From the IMG/VR virus record IMGVR_UViG_3300005739_000025: a stretch of DNA of 64,000 bases; one strand, 5' to 3'. Below the pieces are notes generated by a model. That model worked only from the letters and a program-made list of their open reading frames with translations. It was not told the origin of the DNA and did not search any database. The DNA is from a virus (Duplodnaviria > Caudoviricetes). The position numbers and the translations under genes are program-made. Shown in pieces: positions 5,995 through 46,151 of the stretch (position 1 is its first letter; the number at the start of each line of letters is the position of its first letter).

Positions 5995-7623
5995 TTAATT
6001 AATACGGTCAAAGAAATGCTCTGGCAACTTATACTTTACTCTTGGCAATACTTTAAATCCGTTACCGTCTAATATATAAGTGCTACTATAGTCTTGTTTA
6101 CTACGCGTGGCTCGACCACACATTTGCACCAATATATTAAGCATTTGATTTTCATACCAGTCCTTATCTATATCAAACAACTTTTTAATTCTCTTATTAC
6201 CAAGAGGTAAAAACGGTAACTTCACTATAATAGAAAATCTAGCTAAATCATCTCTTAAATCTACACCATGGGTCAATGAAGGACTTACTAGTACTGTAGG
6301 ATCCTTACTGTTATAGTGTTTATTGAGTATATCATCATTAACTGACATTTCATTACGAAATAAAAATCTTTTATCTTTTAAATGTTTTCTCAAAATATTT
6401 GTAATGTCCATGCTTTGTGTATGGATGATTCCTTTTTCGTTTTTGTATACATCACAAAGCTCAACTATTTGTTTTGCTATCTTTGGTAGGACTTTTTCTT
6501 TATTAGCATAGTTTATAGGGTTTGTGCTAGATATATAAATTGGACTTTGTTTAGGATCAAAATTACTTTTAGTTTCTATATACTCGTATTTGTTTATGCC
6601 GAGTGACTCAGCAAATTTCTTATGGTCTATGATTGTTGCTGACATTAGAACTATTTGATCCCCGTAATCAAATATATGTTTTGTGAGCGTGTTAACTTTT
6701 AATGGTGTAATACTAATTACACCCCTTTCTGGTTGATCAATAATCCATTCACAAGAGCTCCACTCATTGGTGCATGTGTTAATTTGAAGAAATAAAGTCT
6801 TCAACGTAGAGATTTTATTTTTTTCACCTAAAACTAAATTTGGATTTTTATTATAATCTTTAATGAGCTGTTCTATGTAATCGCTAATTGTCAGTGAGAG
6901 ATTTGTTAGCCAATCAAGCATATCTTTGTTTGTATATGATTTTGGGGATTTTACATCAATTCCAAGCTTATTGAGTTTTTTAAGATCTAGATATAAAGAA
7001 AACATTTTAACCATTTCATTCTCTAACTCTGAAGCTTCATCGCAAATTATATAATTTTTTCTCTTAACATGTCTCGGTAAATGTAAAAACATCTTATAGT
7101 TTAAGACTGTGTGTCTTGATATAAGAGCTACATTTCTACTATTATAGTAAGGACATCTGTTAGCTTTCCAGCAGTCCTCTTTTAGTCTGGGGGCCAGTAG
7201 ACAGGGTGCTGTATCAATAGTAGAGTTGTTATCGACTTCACATATATAATTTGTTTTACCTTTTAAAGTATTAATTTCATTAAATAATCCTTTATATTGA
7301 TCTTGTAAGCTTTTAGTTATTGTTAATGTAAAGCTACCAAAAGGTGGTTCATCTTCACATAATACTTGATTGGTATAATTACCTGAAAAGTCTTGTTTAA
7401 ACGCCTGATAGGATTCAATCAACTCTACAAATTTTTTAGTTGGATCGTTACTCGCATTAGCCAAAGTCATGGATAAAAAACTCTTACCGGTACCTGTTGG
7501 TGCTGATACTATTGCAAATTTGTTATTACTGGAAAAACATTCATCTACCCTTCTTATTATCTCTATTTGACTTGTGGAAGGCTCAAAGTCTTTAGGAAAA
7601 TAGTTAAGAAGCTTTTTTCGCAC
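5995..7623 (-). CDS. DinG/Rad3-family SF2 helicase
   Basis: Walker A APTGTGKS, DEAS motif II, MSAT motif III, GVDL, QMCGRATR motif VI. Confidence 0.85.
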   Translation of the reverse strand: MRKKLLNYFPKDFEPSTSQIEIIRRVDECFSSNNKFAIVSAPTGTGKSFLSMTLANASNDPTKKFVELIESYQAFKQDFSGNYTNQVLCEDEPPFGSFTLTITKSLQDQYKGLFNEINTLKGKTNYICEVDNNSTIDTAPCLLAPRLKEDCWKANRCPYYNSRNVALISRHTVLNYKMFLHLPRHVKRKNYIICDEASELENEMVKMFSLYLDLKKLNKLGIDVKSPKSYTNKDMLDWLTNLSLTISDYIEQLIKDYNKNPNLVLGEKNKISTLKTLFLQINTCTNEWSSCEWIIDQPERGVISITPLKVNTLTKHIFDYGDQIVLMSATIIDHKKFAESLGINKYEYIETKSNFDPKQSPIYISSTNPINYANKEKVLPKIAKQIVELCDVYKNEKGIIHTQSMDITNILRKHLKDKRFLFRNEMSVNDDILNKHYNSKDPTVLVSPSLTHGVDLRDDLARFSIIVKLPFLPLGNKRIKKLFDIDKDWYENQMLNILVQMCGRATRSKQDYSSTYILDGNGFKVLPRVKYKLPEHFFDRIN

Positions 7624-14919: not shown

Positions 14920-16224
14920 ATGCCTGTAGTAGCACAAATAAATGTAAATTTTGCATCGTTACCCCAAACGGTTGCCTCTCCAGCAGCTCTACCAACTAAT
15001 ATTAGAGCAGTAAGCCCCCTAACTTTATCTCAATATCTTTTATACAATAGAGATAAACAAGATAATGATGCCCATCTTAGAGATCCCGTGTATATAAATT
15101 ATCAAGGAGGATTTTTAACTGCAGGTGATAAAGTAAACGTAAAGCACGATGGAAACCTACAACTAAGACAAAATCTAGACGTAGAAAAAAGTTTATTTGT
15201 AGATTCTATTTTTAGTAGAAGAAAAGGCGCCACAAACACTACATATCAATCTGATAGATCCGGGGACAGATCTTTAACTTTAGCACCTAACACAGGCGAT
15301 GTTAGTATAACAAATCAATTAAATTTTATAAGATTAAACTCTACAGGAACCTCAAGAAGTATAACTCTTTCTATAAATTTTGGAGCCGCAGCAGATAAAG
15401 AGAATAGTATAACATTAAACAACGATAATAATACTACAAAAACAATGAACCTAAAAACAGGGTTCTTTGAATTAAGGGCAGATGATATTAAAAACTTTGG
15501 TCCTATTTACAATAGCTCAACAGTAGAAATAGAAGGGCAAACTACAATCACTGATAATATTAGAATTACAGGAAATTTATCTTTAGGAGCAGCTTATAGT
15601 AATTTTATAGTAAATGCAGCAACAGGTAATGTTACTCAAACAGGAAGTTTGACCATTAATGTTAATAAATTTACAGTTAATGCAGCAAACGGAAATACAG
15701 TCATTGATGGAACTTTATTAGTGAATGGCGCTACCGTAACAATAAAAGGCGCCACAACCGTAAGCAACTCTATTACATTTGATACCGGGGGGTCAACAGC
15801 TGATTCAAGAATGATTACCGGGTTAAGAAGAGTCGTAGACTTTTCAGATATTACAAGTGTAGGAAGAACCACAAACGCAATGACTATAGGCGATTTTGTA
15901 GATAGGTTTTACCATATACCTAAAAATGAAAATTCTTCTTATACAGTTACTAATTCAGATAGTCAAACTACAATATTATGTAATAATACTAGTAATATTA
16001 ATATATCTCTTCCCGCTGGTCTAAGAGTAGGAACCCAAGTTTCTTTTATTAGACAAAATACAGGTAAAGTGACTTTTGTAGGTGCGGGGACAACTATAAA
16101 ATCCGCTCCCACGGATAGTTTCAGTAGCCTGGCTTTTACAAGTTCTGTAGGAACTTGTTTTTTTGCAGGTATAGTTAACGGACAACCAACTTGGTATTTG
16201 TTTGGCGATTTACTACCACCTTAA
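14920..16224 (+). CDS. Tail fibre protein
   Basis: Thr/Asn/Gly-rich beta repeats; C-terminal SYTVTNSD...LPAGLRVGTQVSFIRQ domain. Confidence 0.6.
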   Translation: MPVVAQINVNFASLPQTVASPAALPTNIRAVSPLTLSQYLLYNRDKQDNDAHLRDPVYINYQGGFLTAGDKVNVKHDGNLQLRQNLDVEKSLFVDSIFSRRKGATNTTYQSDRSGDRSLTLAPNTGDVSITNQLNFIRLNSTGTSRSITLSINFGAAADKENSITLNNDNNTTKTMNLKTGFFELRADDIKNFGPIYNSSTVEIEGQTTITDNIRITGNLSLGAAYSNFIVNAATGNVTQTGSLTINVNKFTVNAANGNTVIDGTLLVNGATVTIKGATTVSNSITFDTGGSTADSRMITGLRRVVDFSDITSVGRTTNAMTIGDFVDRFYHIPKNENSSYTVTNSDSQTTILCNNTSNINISLPAGLRVGTQVSFIRQNTGKVTFVGAGTTIKSAPTDSFSSLAFTSSVGTCFFAGIVNGQPTWYLFGDLLPP

Positions 16225-16235
16225 TAATTATATAT

Positions 16236-17414
16236 ATGGCTACAGCAGTTAGACCCCCAGGTTATTATACATCCTGGTTACATGTTGTCACAGAGATAAA
16301 AGATACCAATTTAGACAAATACAAAAACGGTATCAATCTTTATAATTGGATAGGCGATTGGACACAAGCCAATTATGGCCATAGGTGGACTAACGCTAGT
16401 AAAAAGTTAAATGCAATTTTAACTATAAATTCTGGATCAATAGTTTACGCTCCCAGTTTTGATACACCAATTAGTTCAACATCTACAGGTTTCACAAATT
16501 CACCCACCCCGGCGTCCAGAATTCCAGCTATATTAATTCCTGATGACTTTAGGGATTTTGATAGAATTACTATTATTAATAATGGTATTATTATAGGACA
16601 ATACGGGGTTAGAAGTTATAGTGGTTCCGGTAGCTTTACACCCCCACAAATTAATTCAAGCAGCACTGTTATTGTTACAGATTTTATATCCCCCGCTACT
16701 CTTTCCGTAGCTGGCGGTGGTGGACGCGGTGGTGAAAACGCAGGTTCAGGCTCTGGAGGTGGAGGAGGTGGAGGAGGCGCCGGCGGACTAAGTACTAAAA
16801 CTGTTACAGTTGCCCCAGGGGTTCCTGTAGTAGCAAGTATAGGTGGGGAAGGGCAAGGATCATCATATTCTCAAAGTGGAAAAGTATTAGTTTCTGCTGG
16901 AGGGGGTGGTGCTGGTGGGAATGGCTTTGGAGGTAACAGAGGTAGATACTGTGGAGGTTTTAATATAGCAGGAATATGTTTTAATTGGTTTAATACTTGG
17001 GCTGACGGCGAAGGTGGCGAAGGCGGAAGAGGGGGTAGCCCTGGGGGACGAGACGGACAAAAAGGAGGGAGCGGGGGATATAGGTATGATAGATCGGGCA
17101 TGCAAAGAAATAGTGGGGGAGGATCCGGTGGCCAAGGAACGGGGGGTAATGGGGGTAAGGGAGCTGATGAACCTAAAGGAAATGCTGGGTCTGGATCCAG
17201 AGGTTGGGCCGACTGGTCGTACAATAGAAGAGAACTTTACGGACCAGCAATAGTTAATTTTCACGATAATGTAAGAATTATTAATAATTCTGTAATAGCA
17301 GGTGGATACGCACAGAGACCGGTATATGCTGTTTACGGAACAGGTCTAATGGAAGCGCCTCCTACTGGAATTATAATAGGAGGCTCATTCTCGGGACCCC
17401 CTCCTAATACTTGA
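16236..17414 (+). CDS. Glycine-rich tail/receptor-binding protein
   Basis: Start reassigned to ATG 16236; long GGGGGG/GGxGG tracts. Confidence 0.6.
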   Translation: MATAVRPPGYYTSWLHVVTEIKDTNLDKYKNGINLYNWIGDWTQANYGHRWTNASKKLNAILTINSGSIVYAPSFDTPISSTSTGFTNSPTPASRIPAILIPDDFRDFDRITIINNGIIIGQYGVRSYSGSGSFTPPQINSSSTVIVTDFISPATLSVAGGGGRGGENAGSGSGGGGGGGGAGGLSTKTVTVAPGVPVVASIGGEGQGSSYSQSGKVLVSAGGGGAGGNGFGGNRGRYCGGFNIAGICFNWFNTWADGEGGEGGRGGSPGGRDGQKGGSGGYRYDRSGMQRNSGGGSGGQGTGGNGGKGADEPKGNAGSGSRGWADWSYNRRELYGPAIVNFHDNVRIINNSVIAGGYAQRPVYAVYGTGLMEAPPTGIIIGGSFSGPPPNT

Positions 17415-18056: not shown

Positions 18057-18131
18057 ATGAAACTACATACATCAATTATGGATTCAGGTCGACCAAGTCT
18101 CTTTGGGAAATGGACAACCTGTATCTTTTAA
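18057..18131 (+). CDS. Leader peptide 1, MKLHTSIMDSGRPSLFGKWTTCIF
   Basis: 24 codons; its stop abuts the antiterminator 5' strand; codons match the array-1 anticodons. Confidence 0.7.
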   Translation: MKLHTSIMDSGRPSLFGKWTTCIF

Positions 18132-18159: not shown

Positions 18160-18191
18160 CGCTACCTAATTAAATAGGTAGCGTTTTTTTT
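18160..18191 (+). terminator. Intrinsic terminator
   Basis: CGCTACCTA-attaaa-TAGGTAGCG followed by T8. Confidence 0.85.
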
Positions 18192-18582: not shown

Positions 18583-18666
18583 ATGTCCGCTCACAAGTGG
18601 GATTGTAGACGGTCTCCAAAACCGTTGTCGTTTGACTAAGGGGTTCGATTCCTCACGGACATGCCA
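18583..18666 (+). tRNA. trnW: tRNA-Trp(CCA) with extended variable arm
   Basis: ATGTCCG/CGGACAT-G-CCA, ACGGT-CTCCAAA-ACCGT, ~13-nt variable region. Confidence 0.75.
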
Positions 18667-18670
18667 TTTC

Positions 18671-18741
18671 GCGGTGGTAGTATAATAGTAGTACAGGAGT
18701 CTTCCAAACTTCGGGCCTCGGAGCGTAACCGTGTCACCGCA
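18671..18741 (+). tRNA. trnG: tRNA-Gly(TCC), non-canonical T-loop
   Basis: GCGGTGG/TCACCGC, loop CTTCCAA, T-loop AGCGTAA. Confidence 0.8.
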
Positions 18742-18775
18742 TTTGATTTTACGTTATAATATACTATAATAAATT

Positions 18776-19540
18776 ATGTTTTTTAAGAAAACCAAAACAC
18801 CCTATATAAAGTTTATTCCCATAGTCGAGGGTTTAAAAGAATTTATCCCCATAATACCAGCTAAAAGTTATTTACCTGATTGGTGGGAAAAAATAAACAT
18901 AAACGAAAATGTTAAATTTGCTAATAAACGTCCTGTTTCTACTGGTACAGTTAGAAAATGTCCAGGTATAATGGATTTTTTAAAAACAGGCTATATTATA
19001 CCCGCCTGGACTGATATATATATTACAGTTAAAGGTAGAGAAAGTATAGAATTTGAACTATCCGATAAAAGATTTAATGCTCGTATACACAGCAATGATC
19101 AATTTTTAAACTATATACCTGAACATTCAAAAACAGAGTATCTTTGGACTTTGAAGTTACAGAGTCCTTGGTTTATACAAACCCCACCAGGTTATAGTGT
19201 TATGTATATAAACCCGTATTATCACTTTAACAAATATTATGATATTGCCCCTGGTATACAAGATACAGATATATATCATGATTCCAACCAATTTTTGTTA
19301 ATTAAAAAAGAAGGAGAATTTTTAATAGAACGAGGTTCTCCACTTAGCATAGTTTTTCCTTTTAAACGAGAAGACTATGACTTTACGATGGAAGATTATG
19401 ATTTTTTTAAAACAGAGAAATATAAATCTAGAGAAGAATTTGTATCGTTTTCAAAATTTTCATCAATGCTTTCTTATAAAAAAGAACAACAAAAACAAAG
19501 AAAATGTCCTTTTTTATGGAATCATAGCTCAATCGGTTAG
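18776..19540 (+). CDS. Conserved phage protein (DUF6065-like), paralogue of 22109-22840; stop codon lies inside tRNA-Asp
   Basis: RKCPGIMDFLKTGYIIPAWTD, W.IQTPPGYS, PGIQDTD. Confidence 0.7.
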   Translation: MFFKKTKTPYIKFIPIVEGLKEFIPIIPAKSYLPDWWEKININENVKFANKRPVSTGTVRKCPGIMDFLKTGYIIPAWTDIYITVKGRESIEFELSDKRFNARIHSNDQFLNYIPEHSKTEYLWTLKLQSPWFIQTPPGYSVMYINPYYHFNKYYDIAPGIQDTDIYHDSNQFLLIKKEGEFLIERGSPLSIVFPFKREDYDFTMEDYDFFKTEKYKSREEFVSFSKFSSMLSYKKEQQKQRKCPFLWNHSSIG

Positions 19541-19591
19541 AGCACTGCCCTGTCACGGCAGGGGTTGCGAGTTCGAGTCTCGTTGATTCCG
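19518..19591 (+). tRNA. trnD: tRNA-Asp(GTC)
   Basis: GGAATCA/TGATTCC, loop CTGTCAC. Confidence 0.93.
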
Positions 19592-19596
19592 TGAAT

Positions 19597-19671
19597 GTCT
19601 GTGTAGTGTAATAGAGAGCACGAGAAGCTACGAACTTTTTAGTGTGGGTGCAAATCCTGCCATAGACACCA
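19597..19671 (+). tRNA. trnR: tRNA-Arg(ACG), non-canonical T-loop
   Basis: GTCTGTG/CATAGAC-ACCA, loop CTACGAA, T-loop TGCAAAT. Confidence 0.85.
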
Positions 19672-19678
19672 TTTTAAC

Positions 19679-19755
19679 GCTCTGGAAGCTAAAGTAGTCG
19701 AAGCGTTAGTCTGCAAAACTTTCATTAGTCGGTGCGAGTCCGACCCAGAGCTCCA
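19679..19755 (+). tRNA. trnC: tRNA-Cys(GCA), non-canonical T-loop
   Basis: GCTCTGG/CCAGAGC-TCCA, loop CTGCAAA (weak anticodon stem), T-loop TGCGAGT. Confidence 0.8.
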
Positions 19756-19762
19756 TTTTATA

Positions 19763-20023
19763 GATCTGGCCGTAGCAAATGATATCCAGATCAGGGTGTG
19801 TTCCCTTTGCCTGTTAGTGTGTTGGGGGTGCTCATCTGGGCTAGTCGAGCTAGGCTACATAAAGCTATGACGCTATGCATTAGTACAACACAGGCTATTG
19901 GACGGAAGTATCTGGCTCCAGGCCAGACTCCGTTAAGGAAGGGACAAAATCCGGAACAAAACCCTTCAGCACTAATAATTTAGTAGACCCGTTATGCCTC
20001 TTAGCAATGCACACTTAACGGGT
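19763..20023 (+). ncRNA. Unassigned ~260-nt structured RNA inside the tRNA array
   Basis: GC-rich, no credible ORF, at least six stems (GATCTGG/CCAGATC, GTGTTG/CAACAC, TCTGGC/GCCAGA, GAAGGG/CCCTTC, ACCCGTTA/TAACGGGT). Confidence 0.55.
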
Positions 20024-20028
20024 ATTTT

Positions 20029-20099
20029 CCCTCCTTAGTATAGTAGCATTACAATCGGTTGATAACCGATAGAACTAGGGGCAGTACCTAGAGGAGGGA
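20029..20099 (+). tRNA. trnI: tRNA-Ile(GAT), non-canonical T-loop
   Basis: CCCTCCT/AGGAGGG, ATCGG-TTGATAA-CCGAT, T-loop GGCAGTA. Confidence 0.85.
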
Positions 20100-20135
20100 C
20101 TATTGACTTTTCAAAAGGCGTGATATAATTACTTT

Positions 20136-20351
20136 ATGTACGAGACCGATCTCACATATAAGAGAAAAAAATATAAAATTAAAATAAAAACCATTTTCGA
20201 GGTAGGGGATGGTAAAGAACATTATGATTTAGAAGTCTCAACAAATAAAAGAATGTCTGGTAATGAATTTTTAGCGCTAAGAAAATATCTAGAAGATGAG
20301 GGTTATATAGAACAAGCAAGAATTTATAATGAGGAACTTTATGCCGATTAA
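20136..20351 (+). CDS. Hypothetical protein
   Basis: 71-aa ORF with a sigma70-like promoter upstream. Confidence 0.55.
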   Translation: MYETDLTYKRKKYKIKIKTIFEVGDGKEHYDLEVSTNKRMSGNEFLALRKYLEDEGYIEQARIYNEELYAD

Positions 20352-20497
20352 AGATTGGACAAAAATGACTAAAGATGAACTCTTATATACCTTTGAATGG
20401 GCACAAAAAATAGGTTTTCACTTTTTAGCTAAAGAAGTGTATAATCAATTAAAAGTTAAGGGTCTCATTAAAGAGGATAAGAGCGAAAAATAATTTA

Positions 20498-20569
20498 CGG
20501 GCACGAGGAAGATAGTAATCCGCCAGTTTTGGGAACTGGAAATACTCGGGGCGGAACCGAGGTGCCCGA
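20498..20569 (+). tRNA. trnP: tRNA-Pro(TGG), non-canonical T-loop
   Basis: CGGGCAC/GTGCCCG, CCAGT-TTTGGGA-ACTGG, T-loop GGCGGAA. Confidence 0.85.
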
Positions 20570-20572
20570 TTT

Positions 20573-20647
20573 CGCTGCTTAGCTGAGATAGATTAGCACG
20601 AGTCTGAAGAACTTGATAGGTTGGAGCGTTACCAACAGCAGCGGCCA
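20573..20647 (+). tRNA. trnF: tRNA-Phe(GAA), non-canonical T-loop
   Basis: CGCTGCT/AGCAGCG-G-CCA, loop CTGAAGA, T-loop AGCGTTA. Confidence 0.82.
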
Positions 20648-20650
20648 TTT

Positions 20651-20726
20651 TTGGAGCAACCACAAACCCACTGGTATTAGGCGTTGAGAGTAATTGGAAA
20701 GCGCTCTCGAGTAAGTCCTGCTCCAA
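20651..20726 (+). ncRNA. Unassigned tRNA-sized structured element A
   Basis: TTGGAGCA/TGCTCCAA closing stem, internal GAGAG/CTCTC, flanked by T-tracts; resembles 21552-21617. Confidence 0.45.
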
Positions 20727-20736
20727 TTTTTTAAAC

Positions 20737-20808
20737 GTGGCTCGTGGTGTAATAGAAGCATTAGAGATTGTGACTCTCTCGGTGAGGGGGCAGAACCCTT
20801 CGAGCCAA
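20737..20808 (+). tRNA. trnH: tRNA-His(GTG), non-canonical T-loop
   Basis: G-1, TGGCTCG/CGAGCCA, AGAGA-TTGTGAC-TCTCT, T-loop GGCAGAA. Confidence 0.85.
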
Positions 20809-21879: not shown

Positions 21880-21966
21880 GGAAGTGTGGCCGAGCGGTTT
21901 AAGGCAGAAGTTTACTAAACTTCCGAGGTATCCATTCCTCCGTGGGTTCGAATCCCACTGCTTCCA
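21880..21966 (+). tRNA. trnS: tRNA-Ser(ACT), unusual A34 anticodon
   Basis: Ser-type body with long variable arm; GAAGT-TTACTAA-ACTTC. Confidence 0.85.
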
Positions 21967-22844: not shown

Positions 22845-23102
22845 ATGAATTTTGAAATTTTAATAAATGACTTATTAAAAAAGAATTATAAAATTAATGA
22901 GCAGTTAGCTAAAGGTAAAACTTTAGAAGATATATCTAAAGAGACAGAAACATCAAAAGAAATATTAAATAAAGAACTTAAAAAAGGAATAGAAATAGAA
23001 AAAGAACATACACCATCAGAAAAAAAAGCTAAAACCATAGCTAAAGATCATCTTATTGAAAATCCTAAATATTATACTAAATTAAAGAAAGTAGGATTAT
23101 AG
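22845..23102 (+). CDS. DUF5661-like small protein
   Basis: ELKKGIEIEKEH...IAKDHL.E.PKYYTKL. Confidence 0.65.
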   Translation: MNFEILINDLLKKNYKINEQLAKGKTLEDISKETETSKEILNKELKKGIEIEKEHTPSEKKAKTIAKDHLIENPKYYTKLKKVGL

Positions 23103-23176
23103 ACCCTGTAGTGTAATGCAAAGCACGTTATGCATATAGCATAAAGATAGAGGTTAGAATCCTTTCAGGGTCGCCA
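23102..23176 (+). pseudogene. tRNA-like gene with collapsed anticodon loop (no reliable anticodon)
   Basis: GACCCTG/CAGGGTC-G-CCA; anticodon arm TTATGC-ATATA-GCATAA, A at position 33; T-loop TTAGAAT. Confidence 0.7.
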
Positions 23177-29440: not shown

Positions 29441-30073
29441 ATGCCTCTCTCTGACGAAGATCTTTATAAAATAATGGGTCCTACTTCTATTGCTCCAGAT
29501 GAGAGAAGTTTCGTTAATGAAATAACAAATCAGGTAATTGTAAGAAAAGGCTCTTTTGACGCCGGTCATAGAGTAATGAATGAAAGACTTAAATGTTTTA
29601 ATATTCATGGTCATACCTATCTTTACGAGTTGGCGTTTAATTTTAGTAAATCAAAAGATATAGGATATAATATAGATTTTAAAGAAATTAAAAGAGTAGG
29701 CTGTCAATGGATAGACGATCATCTTGATCACGCTTTAATAGTAAACCCTAACGATCACTTTTTAATTCAAGCGGGTATAGGTTTAAAATCTAAAATGTGG
29801 TTTATGTCTCTAAATGGGGTTGGTAAATATTGTAACCCTACAGTAGAGAACATAGCCAAAGAAATATTTCTAGCTATTCAGTTTCTATTAAATGATAAAG
29901 ACTTACATTTACAACATATTAGACTCTATGAGACCCCTAACTGCTATACAGAATGTTATAGACATAGTATATCACCTAGTGAGAAAAATAATTTCTTAGA
30001 TAGATACAAAAAAGATTTAGAAAAATATAAGCAAGAGAAAGGAACAATTGAATATGACGATAGAAAGCTCTGA
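29441..30073 (+). CDS. queD: 6-carboxytetrahydropterin synthase (QueD/PTPS family)
   Basis: FDAGHR...C.NIHGHTY, DFKEIK...LDHA, NPTVENIA, LYETP. Confidence 0.85.
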   Translation: MPLSDEDLYKIMGPTSIAPDERSFVNEITNQVIVRKGSFDAGHRVMNERLKCFNIHGHTYLYELAFNFSKSKDIGYNIDFKEIKRVGCQWIDDHLDHALIVNPNDHFLIQAGIGLKSKMWFMSLNGVGKYCNPTVENIAKEIFLAIQFLLNDKDLHLQHIRLYETPNCYTECYRHSISPSEKNNFLDRYKKDLEKYKQEKGTIEYDDRKL

Positions 30074-45882: not shown

Positions 45883-46068
45883 ATGAAATTCGAAAACGCA
45901 TTGCTTATTTTTATAGCCATTTATATTATTATAGATTCTATTCTTTCAGTACTAGATTCTAATAAGATTAATAATCTTCAAACACAAATCGATGAGCTTA
46001 AAATTATTGTTGATCAGAAGTTTTTATCTTCGATGGTTTTAGACACATACAATTTAATGCCCCGATAG
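45883..46068 (+). CDS. Small membrane-anchored protein; stop codon inside tRNA-Ile(TAT)
   Basis: N-terminal TM helix; GTTCC-N2-TATACT promoter upstream. Confidence 0.55.
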   Translation: MKFENALLIFIAIYIIIDSILSVLDSNKINNLQTQIDELKIIVDQKFLSSMVLDTYNLMPR

Positions 46069-46151
46069 TTTAATGGCAGAACACAGGTCTTATACACCTG
46101 AAGCTGGGAGACGCTGGCGTAGTGAAGGTTCGAGTCCTTCTCGGGGTACCA
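46059..46151 (+). tRNA. trnI: tRNA-Ile(TAT) with long variable arm
   Basis: GCCCCGA/TCGGGGT-ACCA, CAGGT-CTTATAC-ACCTG, 23-nt extra arm. Confidence 0.82.

Follow-up and report, generated by a model that had tools for sequence, protein, structure and literature searches.

In textbook accounts of tRNA structure, the contact between G18 and Psi55 is a near-universal tertiary interaction. G18 is inserted between positions 57 and 58 and is bonded to Psi55, which produces the U-turn; the neighboring G19-C56 pair forms the outer face of the elbow, and T54-A58 closes the T-loop. The flat face of the G19-C56 pair is stacked on by the ribosome, RNase P, the CCA-adding enzyme, T-boxes and other readers of the elbow. 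Most T-loops combine a U-A handle with a UNR or GNR turn and a G-clamp, with tRNA representing the U-clamp case, and closing pairs other than U-A, including G-G, have been reported (PMC2615604). The T-loops of the FMN and cobalamin riboswitches follow the pattern YGNRA, and the intercalator is an adenosine in 99.96% of the FMN riboswitch sequences (bioRxiv 10.1101/2022.12.26.521914). A cobalamin riboswitch variant with the T-loop AGCAU, in which C3 is paired to a G of the receptor, is nearly as active as the wild type (PMC6158498). Among published bacterial tRNAs, we found G18-G19 and U55 to be missing only from the NP1-3 tRNA-Gly species of Staphylococcus aureus, which are kept out of translation (PMC13443448). 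Here we describe seven tRNA genes of the IMG/VR virus record IMGVR_UViG_3300005739_000025 (Duplodnaviria; Caudoviricetes) in which A18 and G55 take the places of G18 and U55. All seven are located between positions 18671 and 20808 of the 64,000 nt stretch of DNA that was analyzed, which is referred to as the window below. Searches of the open literature for A18/G55 in tRNA and for phage T-loop variants, and a search within the L-array paper, gave no description of this class.

A18 and G55 in seven tRNAs of one phage

The window is AT-rich (33.6% GC), and comes from a large uncultured T4-like myovirus with a portal protein about 32% identical to cyanophage g20. It contains 27 tRNA-like genes, all on the + strand and spread over several arrays. 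A cloverleaf scanner of our own, which rates candidates by stem pairing and U33 without regard to the sequences of the D-loop and the T-loop, found 25 tRNA-like genes; six of these had non-canonical T-loops, and all six were within positions 18671–20808. A seventh, tRNA-Cys (19679–19752), was added by Rfam at 42.2 bits. It had fallen below the threshold of the scanner because of two U-U mismatches in the anticodon stem. A relaxed scan of both strands of the 64 kb that required nothing but a.GCR... T-loop returned exactly these seven variants.

All seven variants have A18-G19 (TAG in the D-loop, with no GG) together with G55, and all 20 other tRNA-like genes have U55. The resulting table of A18 versus G55 (7/0/0/20) is highly non-random (Fisher p = 1.1e-6). 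The conserved G18-U55 pair is thus replaced in every variant, and G19-C56 is retained in every one. The pair at positions 54 and 58 falls into three classes: A-U and U-A in two tRNAs each, and G-G in three (Table 1). GG and TTCG or TTCGA are kept by 19 of the 20 non-variant genes. The remaining gene, called Ile-TAT by ARAGORN, has A33, GC in place of GG in the D-loop, U55 and A56, and is probably a defective tRNA and a separate case outside the A18/G55 class. Rescanning therefore confirmed all details observed in an earlier note on this sequence: the seven T-loops with G55, letter for letter, the change of GG to AG at D-loop positions 18 and 19, and the retention of GG and TTCG in the other intact tRNAs. 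The earlier note had also proposed that G18-Psi55 was replaced by A18-G55 in unrelated isotypes, and the stems agree with this, with a stem identity of 0.43 among the variants and of 0.40 between variants and canonical tRNAs. Descent of all seven from a single duplicated odd tRNA was considered and rejected on the same two values.

The variants otherwise look like regular tRNAs. All seven have stems of 7, 4, 5 and 5 bp, a 7 nt anticodon loop with U33 and R37, and a 7 nt T-loop, with no more than one stem mismatch in six of them and three in tRNA-Cys. Identity elements are also present, namely U73 in tRNA-Cys, C1-G72 and A73 in tRNA-Pro, and an encoded G-1 in tRNA-His, all of which count as identity elements under the bacterial identity rules. 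For tRNA-Pro, we take C1-G72 and A73 to be the bacterial identity pair and discriminator. Within the head-to-tail arrays, just 4–13 nt separate the variants from canonical tRNAs, and the variants complete the set: the canonical tRNAs of the window serve 16 amino acids, and Cys, Pro, Phe and His are represented solely by variants, so that all 20 amino acids are covered only when the seven are counted. The Gly(UCC), Arg(ACG) and Ile(GAU) variants supply anticodons that are otherwise missing.

Standard tools overlook most of these genes. With default settings, ARAGORN reported only tRNA-Arg(ACG) among the seven; tRNA-Gly and tRNA-Phe appeared with the option -ps, and tRNA-Pro with -ps90. In a cmscan search with RF00005 (gathering threshold 29 bits), four were found (Arg 50.6, Ile 45.5, Gly 44.2 and Cys 42.2 bits), and tRNA-Pro, tRNA-Phe and tRNA-His went unreported. 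Because G18-Psi55 is built into tRNA finders, six of the seven are missed by ARAGORN in its default mode, and the homologous tRNA-Phe is unannotated in many cultured phages.

Related phages and wider samples

Relatives of the phage were reached with patterns made from the D-arm of tRNA-Phe and from a long-arm tRNA-Trp; a protein-anchored search of IMG/VR with the open reading frames (ORFs) at 18776–19540 and 16191–17414 gave no matches. Four related contigs were obtained (G001, which is IMGVR_UViG_3300034101_005931, L155, L157 and L158), in which the order of the array is common and the proteins are 40–65% identical. Among the variant orthologues of tRNA-Ile, tRNA-Gly, tRNA-Arg and tRNA-Phe, the stems differ by 23 double compensatory changes, seven single changes that preserve pairing, and only one disruptive change. 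For tRNA-Ile, 13 double compensatory changes were counted against the orthologues in L153 and L157. The variant tRNA-Phe gene is identical in G001, and the match including the flanks extends over 83 nt with 97.6% identity, compared with 40–65% for the nearby proteins. Thus, the variant cloverleafs are under purifying selection among the relatives. Selection rather than decay had been claimed in the earlier note, and it is borne out by these 23 compensatory changes versus a single broken pair, by the four isotypes that exist only as variants, and by strict covariation in the four wider samples described below.

The isotypes that carry the variant elbow differ from phage to phage. Cys, His and Arg(ACG) are variant in the window and canonical in G001, and conversely, Asp is canonical in the window and variant in G001, which additionally contains a variant Thr(GGU). 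For Gly(UCC), with further orthologues in L155 and L153, the window and L155 have the A-U type, whereas G001 has the G-G type and L157 a canonical tRNA. Some of these switches, those of His and Cys, look as if they had occurred in situ, since the acceptor and D-stems stay similar or identical; for tRNA-His, the canonical counterparts in G001 and L157 have a similar acceptor and D-stem. By contrast, the switches of Arg, for which L157 has a variant orthologue and G001 and L155 have canonical replacements, and of Ile in L155 are gene replacements, judging from the acceptor stems, which differ. Two tRNAs of L157 depart further from the pattern: its tRNA-Cys combines A18/G55 with U19/A56, that is, the neighboring pair has also changed with compensation, and its tRNA-Thr(GGU) has A18/A55.

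Cultured phages provide natural pairs on a fixed background. The tRNA-Phe of the T5-like phage EscoHU1 (Epseptimavirus; L008) has the D-arm GCTG-AGATGGAT-TAGC and the T-arm GTTGG-ATCGTTA-CCAAC and, within these two arms, differs from the tRNA-Phe of the window (AGATAGAT, AGCGTTA) at positions 18 and 55 only. For tRNA-Pro, the counterpart in Streptomyces phage Muntaha shares about 80% identity with the gene of the window and has GACGGTA and TTCGACT in its loops, compared with GATAGTA and GGCGGAA in the window. None of the homologues analyzed from T5-like, Proteus, Ralstonia and Streptomyces phages had A18/G55; all were G18/U55, some of them with A54-U58. This swapped closing pair (T-loop ATCGTTA) together with G18/U55 was observed in tRNA-Phe of T5-like and Proteus phages and in tRNA-Ile(GAT) of a Ralstonia jumbo phage. 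The copies in Proteus phage Stubb and in Ralstonia phage RsoM2USA are unannotated.

To explore the generality of the covariation, we analyzed four wider samples, all drawn without reference to position 55. Viral tRNAs selected by the tRNA-Phe-type D-arm GCTGAGATNGATTAGC had G/U at positions 18/55 in 89 cases, A/G in 17 and U/U in one; G/G and A/U were not found. The A/G state was present on A-U, C-A and U-A backgrounds at 54/58. The same viral loci contain 752 other unique cloverleafs, 79 of which have G55. In 69 of these the D-loop has AG only, in eight it has AGG (which is ambiguous and can be read as A18 G19 G20), and in two it has neither GG nor AG. Among the 673 cloverleafs without G55, an AG-only D-loop was found in just three (Fisher 1e-82). 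These G55 tRNAs have 35 different anticodons and are distributed over 26 of the 101 contigs. At positions 54/58, they have U-A in 31 cases, G-G in 21 and A-U in 21, and position 60 tracks the class (U, A and A, respectively). The co-variation of positions 54 and 58 pointed out in the earlier note is therefore present in unrelated viral contigs as well, where 73 of the 79 G55 tRNAs belong to one of these three classes.

A very common D-arm, TAGCTCAGNTRGNAGAGC, in which position 18 is a purine, gave 116 G/U, four A/G and no mixed states among viral tRNAs. When the same D-arm was fixed to A18 and searched in bacterial and archaeal genomes, 78 of the 87 good cloverleafs had G55 and nine had U55. 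These cellular tRNAs are mostly tRNA-Phe and tRNA-Thr and come from Saccharibacteria, Parcubacteria, Elusimicrobia, Planctomycetes and Omnitrophota, with a single metagenome-assembled genome (MAG) of Pelagibacteraceae in addition. In this MAG, tRNA-Thr(GGU) is the variant, and tRNA-His and tRNA-Phe are canonical. The 139 neighboring tRNAs at the bacterial loci include nine with G55 (eight with AG only, one with GG), and AG only was seen in none of the other 130. In Patescibacteria, three of the 201 genomes hold the common D-arm with A18, one of them being the Saccharibacteria genome (G003) on which the sample was centered; within this one phylum sampled, the variant D-arm is sporadic and not standard. 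Taken together, G18/U55 and A18/G55 dominate in viral and cellular tRNAs alike, and mixed states are rare or absent; the covariation that the earlier note had described for the window is general.

Table 1. Positions of the variant tRNAs and of other features mentioned in the text (window coordinates unless a contig is named).
Feature	Position	Strand	Details
tRNA-Gly(UCC)	18671..18741	+	D-loop AATAGTA; T-loop AGCGTAA (A54-U58); A73; 44.2 bits
tRNA-Arg(ACG)	19597..19671	+	D-loop AATAGAGA; T-loop TGCAAAT (U54-A58); CCA encoded; 50.6 bits
tRNA-Cys(GCA)	19679..19755	+	D-loop AAGTAGTCG; T-loop TGCGAGT (U54-A58); U73; CCA encoded; 42.2 bits
tRNA-Ile(GAU)	20029..20099	+	D-loop AGTAGCA; T-loop GGCAGTA (G54-G58); 45.5 bits
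tRNA-Pro(UGG)	20498..20569	+	D-loop GATAGTA; T-loop GGCGGAA (G54-G58); C1-G72; A73
tRNA-Phe(GAA)	20573..20647	+	D-loop AGATAGAT; T-loop AGCGTTA (A54-U58); CCA encoded
tRNA-His(GUG)	20737..20808	+	G-1 encoded; D-loop AATAGAA; T-loop GGCAGAA (G54-G58); A73
Aberrant tRNA-like gene	23102-23172	+	D-loop AATGCAAA; T-loop TTAGAAT
24-codon ORF	18057-18131		MKLHTSIMDSGRPSLFGKWTTCIF
Terminator-like hairpin	18160-18183		
Long-arm tRNA-Trp(CCA)	18583-18666	+	13 nt variable arm
GC-rich element	19757-20001		about 250 nt, between tRNA-Cys and tRNA-Ile
Stem element	20651-20726		76 nt, between tRNA-Phe and tRNA-His; stem TTGGAGCA...TGCTCCAA
tRNA-Ser	21880-21966	+	anticodon ACT (A34)
tRNA with anticodon TAT	46059-46151	+	23 nt variable arm
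QueD-like ORF	29441-30073		6-pyruvoyl-tetrahydropterin synthase domain
A54-U58 G18/U55 tRNAs of cultured phages	L008 8995-9069; L337 near 6001-6075; L336 6004-6074		

The array contains two further elements. The GC-rich element occurs at the same position in relatives (81% conserved in G001, 75% in L157), and RNAalifold predicts several stems with 11 compensated pairs; the element ends in a hairpin followed by a T-run. It has no Rfam family, with only a sub-threshold match to the abiF motif at 19988–20023 (35.1 bits versus a threshold of 37), and it is probably an undescribed structured RNA that is co-transcribed with the tRNAs. The stem element has an acceptor-like stem of 8 bp, lacks a GG or AG D-loop as well as a T-loop, and was not matched in the relatives, in which only about 14 nt lie between tRNA-Phe and tRNA-His. 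It may be a tRNA remnant or a small RNA of another kind.

Other tRNAs of the window are unusual outside the elbow. The long-arm tRNA-Trp has a class II-like shape, scores 37.6 bits against tRNA-Sec, and its 5' part is identical across the four related contigs. The anticodon of the tRNA-Ser, ACT, where GCT is usual, is kept in L155 and L157, and G001 has GCT; the tRNA with the anticodon TAT and a long variable arm also occurs in G001. The QueD-like ORF belongs to a family that acts in 7-deazaguanine synthesis, and it would suggest that this pathway exists in the phage.

Proposed elbow structure, translation and alternative explanations

We consider it likely that the seven are working elongator tRNAs with an elbow built on a second solution, in which A18 contacts G55. 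In this structure, A18 would take the place of G18, slotted between T-loop positions 57 and 58, and would contact G55 instead of U55 or Psi55. The outer G19-C56 pair would remain unchanged as the elbow platform, and the 54-58 closing pair would be free to be U-A, A-U or G-G. In other words, the generic T-loop rule of a G at position 2 and an intercalating adenine would have been transplanted into tRNA. Indeed, all seven comply with the sequence rule of G-clamp T-loops, having N-G-C-R-N T-loops together with A18 G19, and this exact agreement suggests that they fold into the usual L-shape, with A18 and G55 in contact and the G19-C56 platform left as it is. Because U55, G18 and, in five of the seven, U54 are missing, the variants are predicted to lack Psi55 (TruB), Gm18 (TrmH) and, in those five, m5U54 (TrmA). 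The independence from TruB and TrmA suggested in the earlier note follows directly from the sequence, for TruB (and likewise for TrmH) in all seven and for TrmA in the five without U54.

Use in translation is best illustrated by a bacterium. The Saccharibacteria genome G003 has 46 tRNAs, and its sole tRNA-Phe is A18/G55; therefore, this elbow must support translation there. For the phage of the window, aminoacylation and decoding are predicted, with the identity elements, the non-redundancy of the set and this tRNA-Phe as indirect indications. An ORF of 24 codons, with a terminator-like hairpin behind it, precedes the first tRNA array and contains CAT, ATT/ATC, CGA, CCA, TTT, TGT and GGG, that is, one or more codons for each variant isotype, and all but two of the 24 encode amino acids for which one of the 16 tRNAs downstream is available. 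This composition fits the variants counting as decoders, on the condition that a separate leader-attenuator hypothesis for this ORF holds.

Several observations weigh against working elongators with a strict A18-G55 contact. The two U-U mismatches of tRNA-Cys are at the top of its anticodon stem, and in the T-stem of tRNA-Gly, U50 faces U64, although this mismatch is conserved among the relatives. tRNA-Phe has G73 and G37, and tRNA-Gly has A73, which is atypical by the identity rules of E. coli. In addition, A18/U55 tRNAs exist in genomes at low frequency (9/87), so that the A18-G55 pairing is not absolute.

As to the evolutionary origin, a near-neutral, compensated two-site switch is most likely, which would be tolerated and recurrent where the dependence on T-loop modification is relaxed, as in phage tRNA sets and small genomes. 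Single-mutant intermediates are selected against, since they are rare in every sample. Dedicated counter-defence is a less likely origin. According to this explanation, which we regard as unlikely, the elbow was rebuilt to escape host nucleases or other factors that read U54-U55-C56, so that host tRNAs are destroyed and the variants survive. One known nuclease makes the idea concrete: the Schlafen-type CbCash of type III CRISPR systems reads the UUC T-loop and cleaves on the 5' side of U55, and its cleavage is abolished by a single mutation of U54 or U55, the authors leaving open the effect on phage tRNAs (PMC13462974). However, with only seven of the 27 tRNAs converted, most of the set would still be lost to a nuclease directed at T-loops in general. 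Moreover, the converted isotypes vary among the relatives, with reversions as well, the elbow is shared by ordinary tRNAs of bacterial chromosomes, and we found no defence or anti-defence gene linked to the tRNA array. The frequencies might seem to favor counter-defence, with G55 in about 10% of the cloverleafs of tRNA-rich viral contigs versus three of 201 Patescibacteria genomes with one particular A18 D-arm, but these two values and the 3% share of G55 in one common D-arm family of viral contigs are different quantities that are not directly comparable, and no enrichment in phages over bacteria can be read from them. A broader version, that A18/G55 is a general second elbow architecture without Psi55, m5U54 and Gm18, favored by phages and reduced genomes because it is invisible to TruB, TrmA and Cash-type nucleases, with the mosaic of isotypes reflecting an ongoing arms race, appears doubtful to us.

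Borrowing from a host in which A18/G55 is normal for these isotypes, with nothing specific to phages, is improbable. Such tRNAs do occur in Patescibacteria, Elusimicrobia, Planctomycetes, Omnitrophota and one Pelagibacteraceae MAG, but the variant isotypes differ even among related phages, the single phylum sampled has the variant D-arm only sporadically, and the nearest kin of tRNA-Phe and tRNA-Pro are the tRNAs of T5-like and Streptomyces phages, which are themselves G18/U55. Still less probable is a role outside translation, as decoys, amino acid donors or processing signals, for which the staphylococcal NP tRNA-Gly would be the precedent and with which the failure of standard finders to report most of the seven would agree. 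Such a role is at odds with the retention of G19-C56 and of a 7 nt anticodon loop with U33, with seven isotypes that have matching identity elements, with four isotypes that have no canonical copy in the phage set, and with the location a few bases from canonical tRNAs; the tRNA-Phe of G003 also argues against it. Finally, decaying tRNA genes that share their loop mutations by chance, an idea to which the low finder scores, the mismatches in tRNA-Cys and tRNA-Gly and the truly aberrant gene nearby would lend themselves, are highly improbable in view of the perfect two-site covariation in the window and its recurrence in the four wider samples, the 23 compensatory versus one broken stem changes, and a tRNA-Phe gene that is identical in G001 despite the divergence of nearby proteins.

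Comparison with known elbows and T-loops

The A18/G55 class represents tRNAs with an alternative tertiary pair, and the phage lineage of the window is an unusually clear case. A strictly co-varying alternative to a contact that is taught as near-universal amounts to a natural two-site mutant cycle for the elbow. It also sets apart tRNAs on which TruB, TrmH and, often, TrmA cannot act, and nucleases that read the T-loop could be tested on these tRNAs directly. In addition, it would mean that the tRNA complements of phages and candidate phyla are under-counted.

Compared with canonical elongator tRNAs, the variants share the cloverleaf, the stem lengths and loop sizes, U33 and R37, G19-C56 and the identity elements. 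They differ in A18 and G55, in A-U or G-G at 54/58 in five cases, and in the loss of the target sites of TruB, TrmH and, in these five, TrmA. The nearest sequences are tRNA-Phe of T5-like phages (EscoHU1) and tRNA-Pro of Streptomyces phage Muntaha. With the G-clamp T-loops of the FMN and cobalamin riboswitches and of rRNA, the variants share a G at position 2, a purine at position 4, an intercalating adenine, Watson-Crick pairing of position 3 to the partner loop, and a 1-5 closing pair that varies and can be A-U or G-G. In contrast to these, the variants carry the motif in the T-arm of a tRNA, with the D-loop as the receptor, and we found no solved structure of such a tRNA.

Phage tRNA sets that depart from the norm of the host are known. 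The tRNAs of T5 evade anticodon nucleases via changes in the anticodon loop (cited in PMC13462974). These changes have been shown to block specific nucleases, whereas the changes in the window are in the elbow. The nearest published case is the non-proteogenic tRNA-Gly of Staphylococcus, which differs in key respects. NP1-3 and the phage variants are both natural tRNAs of bacterial type without G18 and U55, and the NP tRNAs are hypomodified; however, in the latter G19 is missing as well, the anticodon loop is shortened and the EF-Tu determinants are weak, and these tRNAs are restricted to Gly and excluded from translation (PMC13443448). The phage variants, in contrast, keep G19-C56 and 7 nt anticodon loops and extend over seven amino acids.

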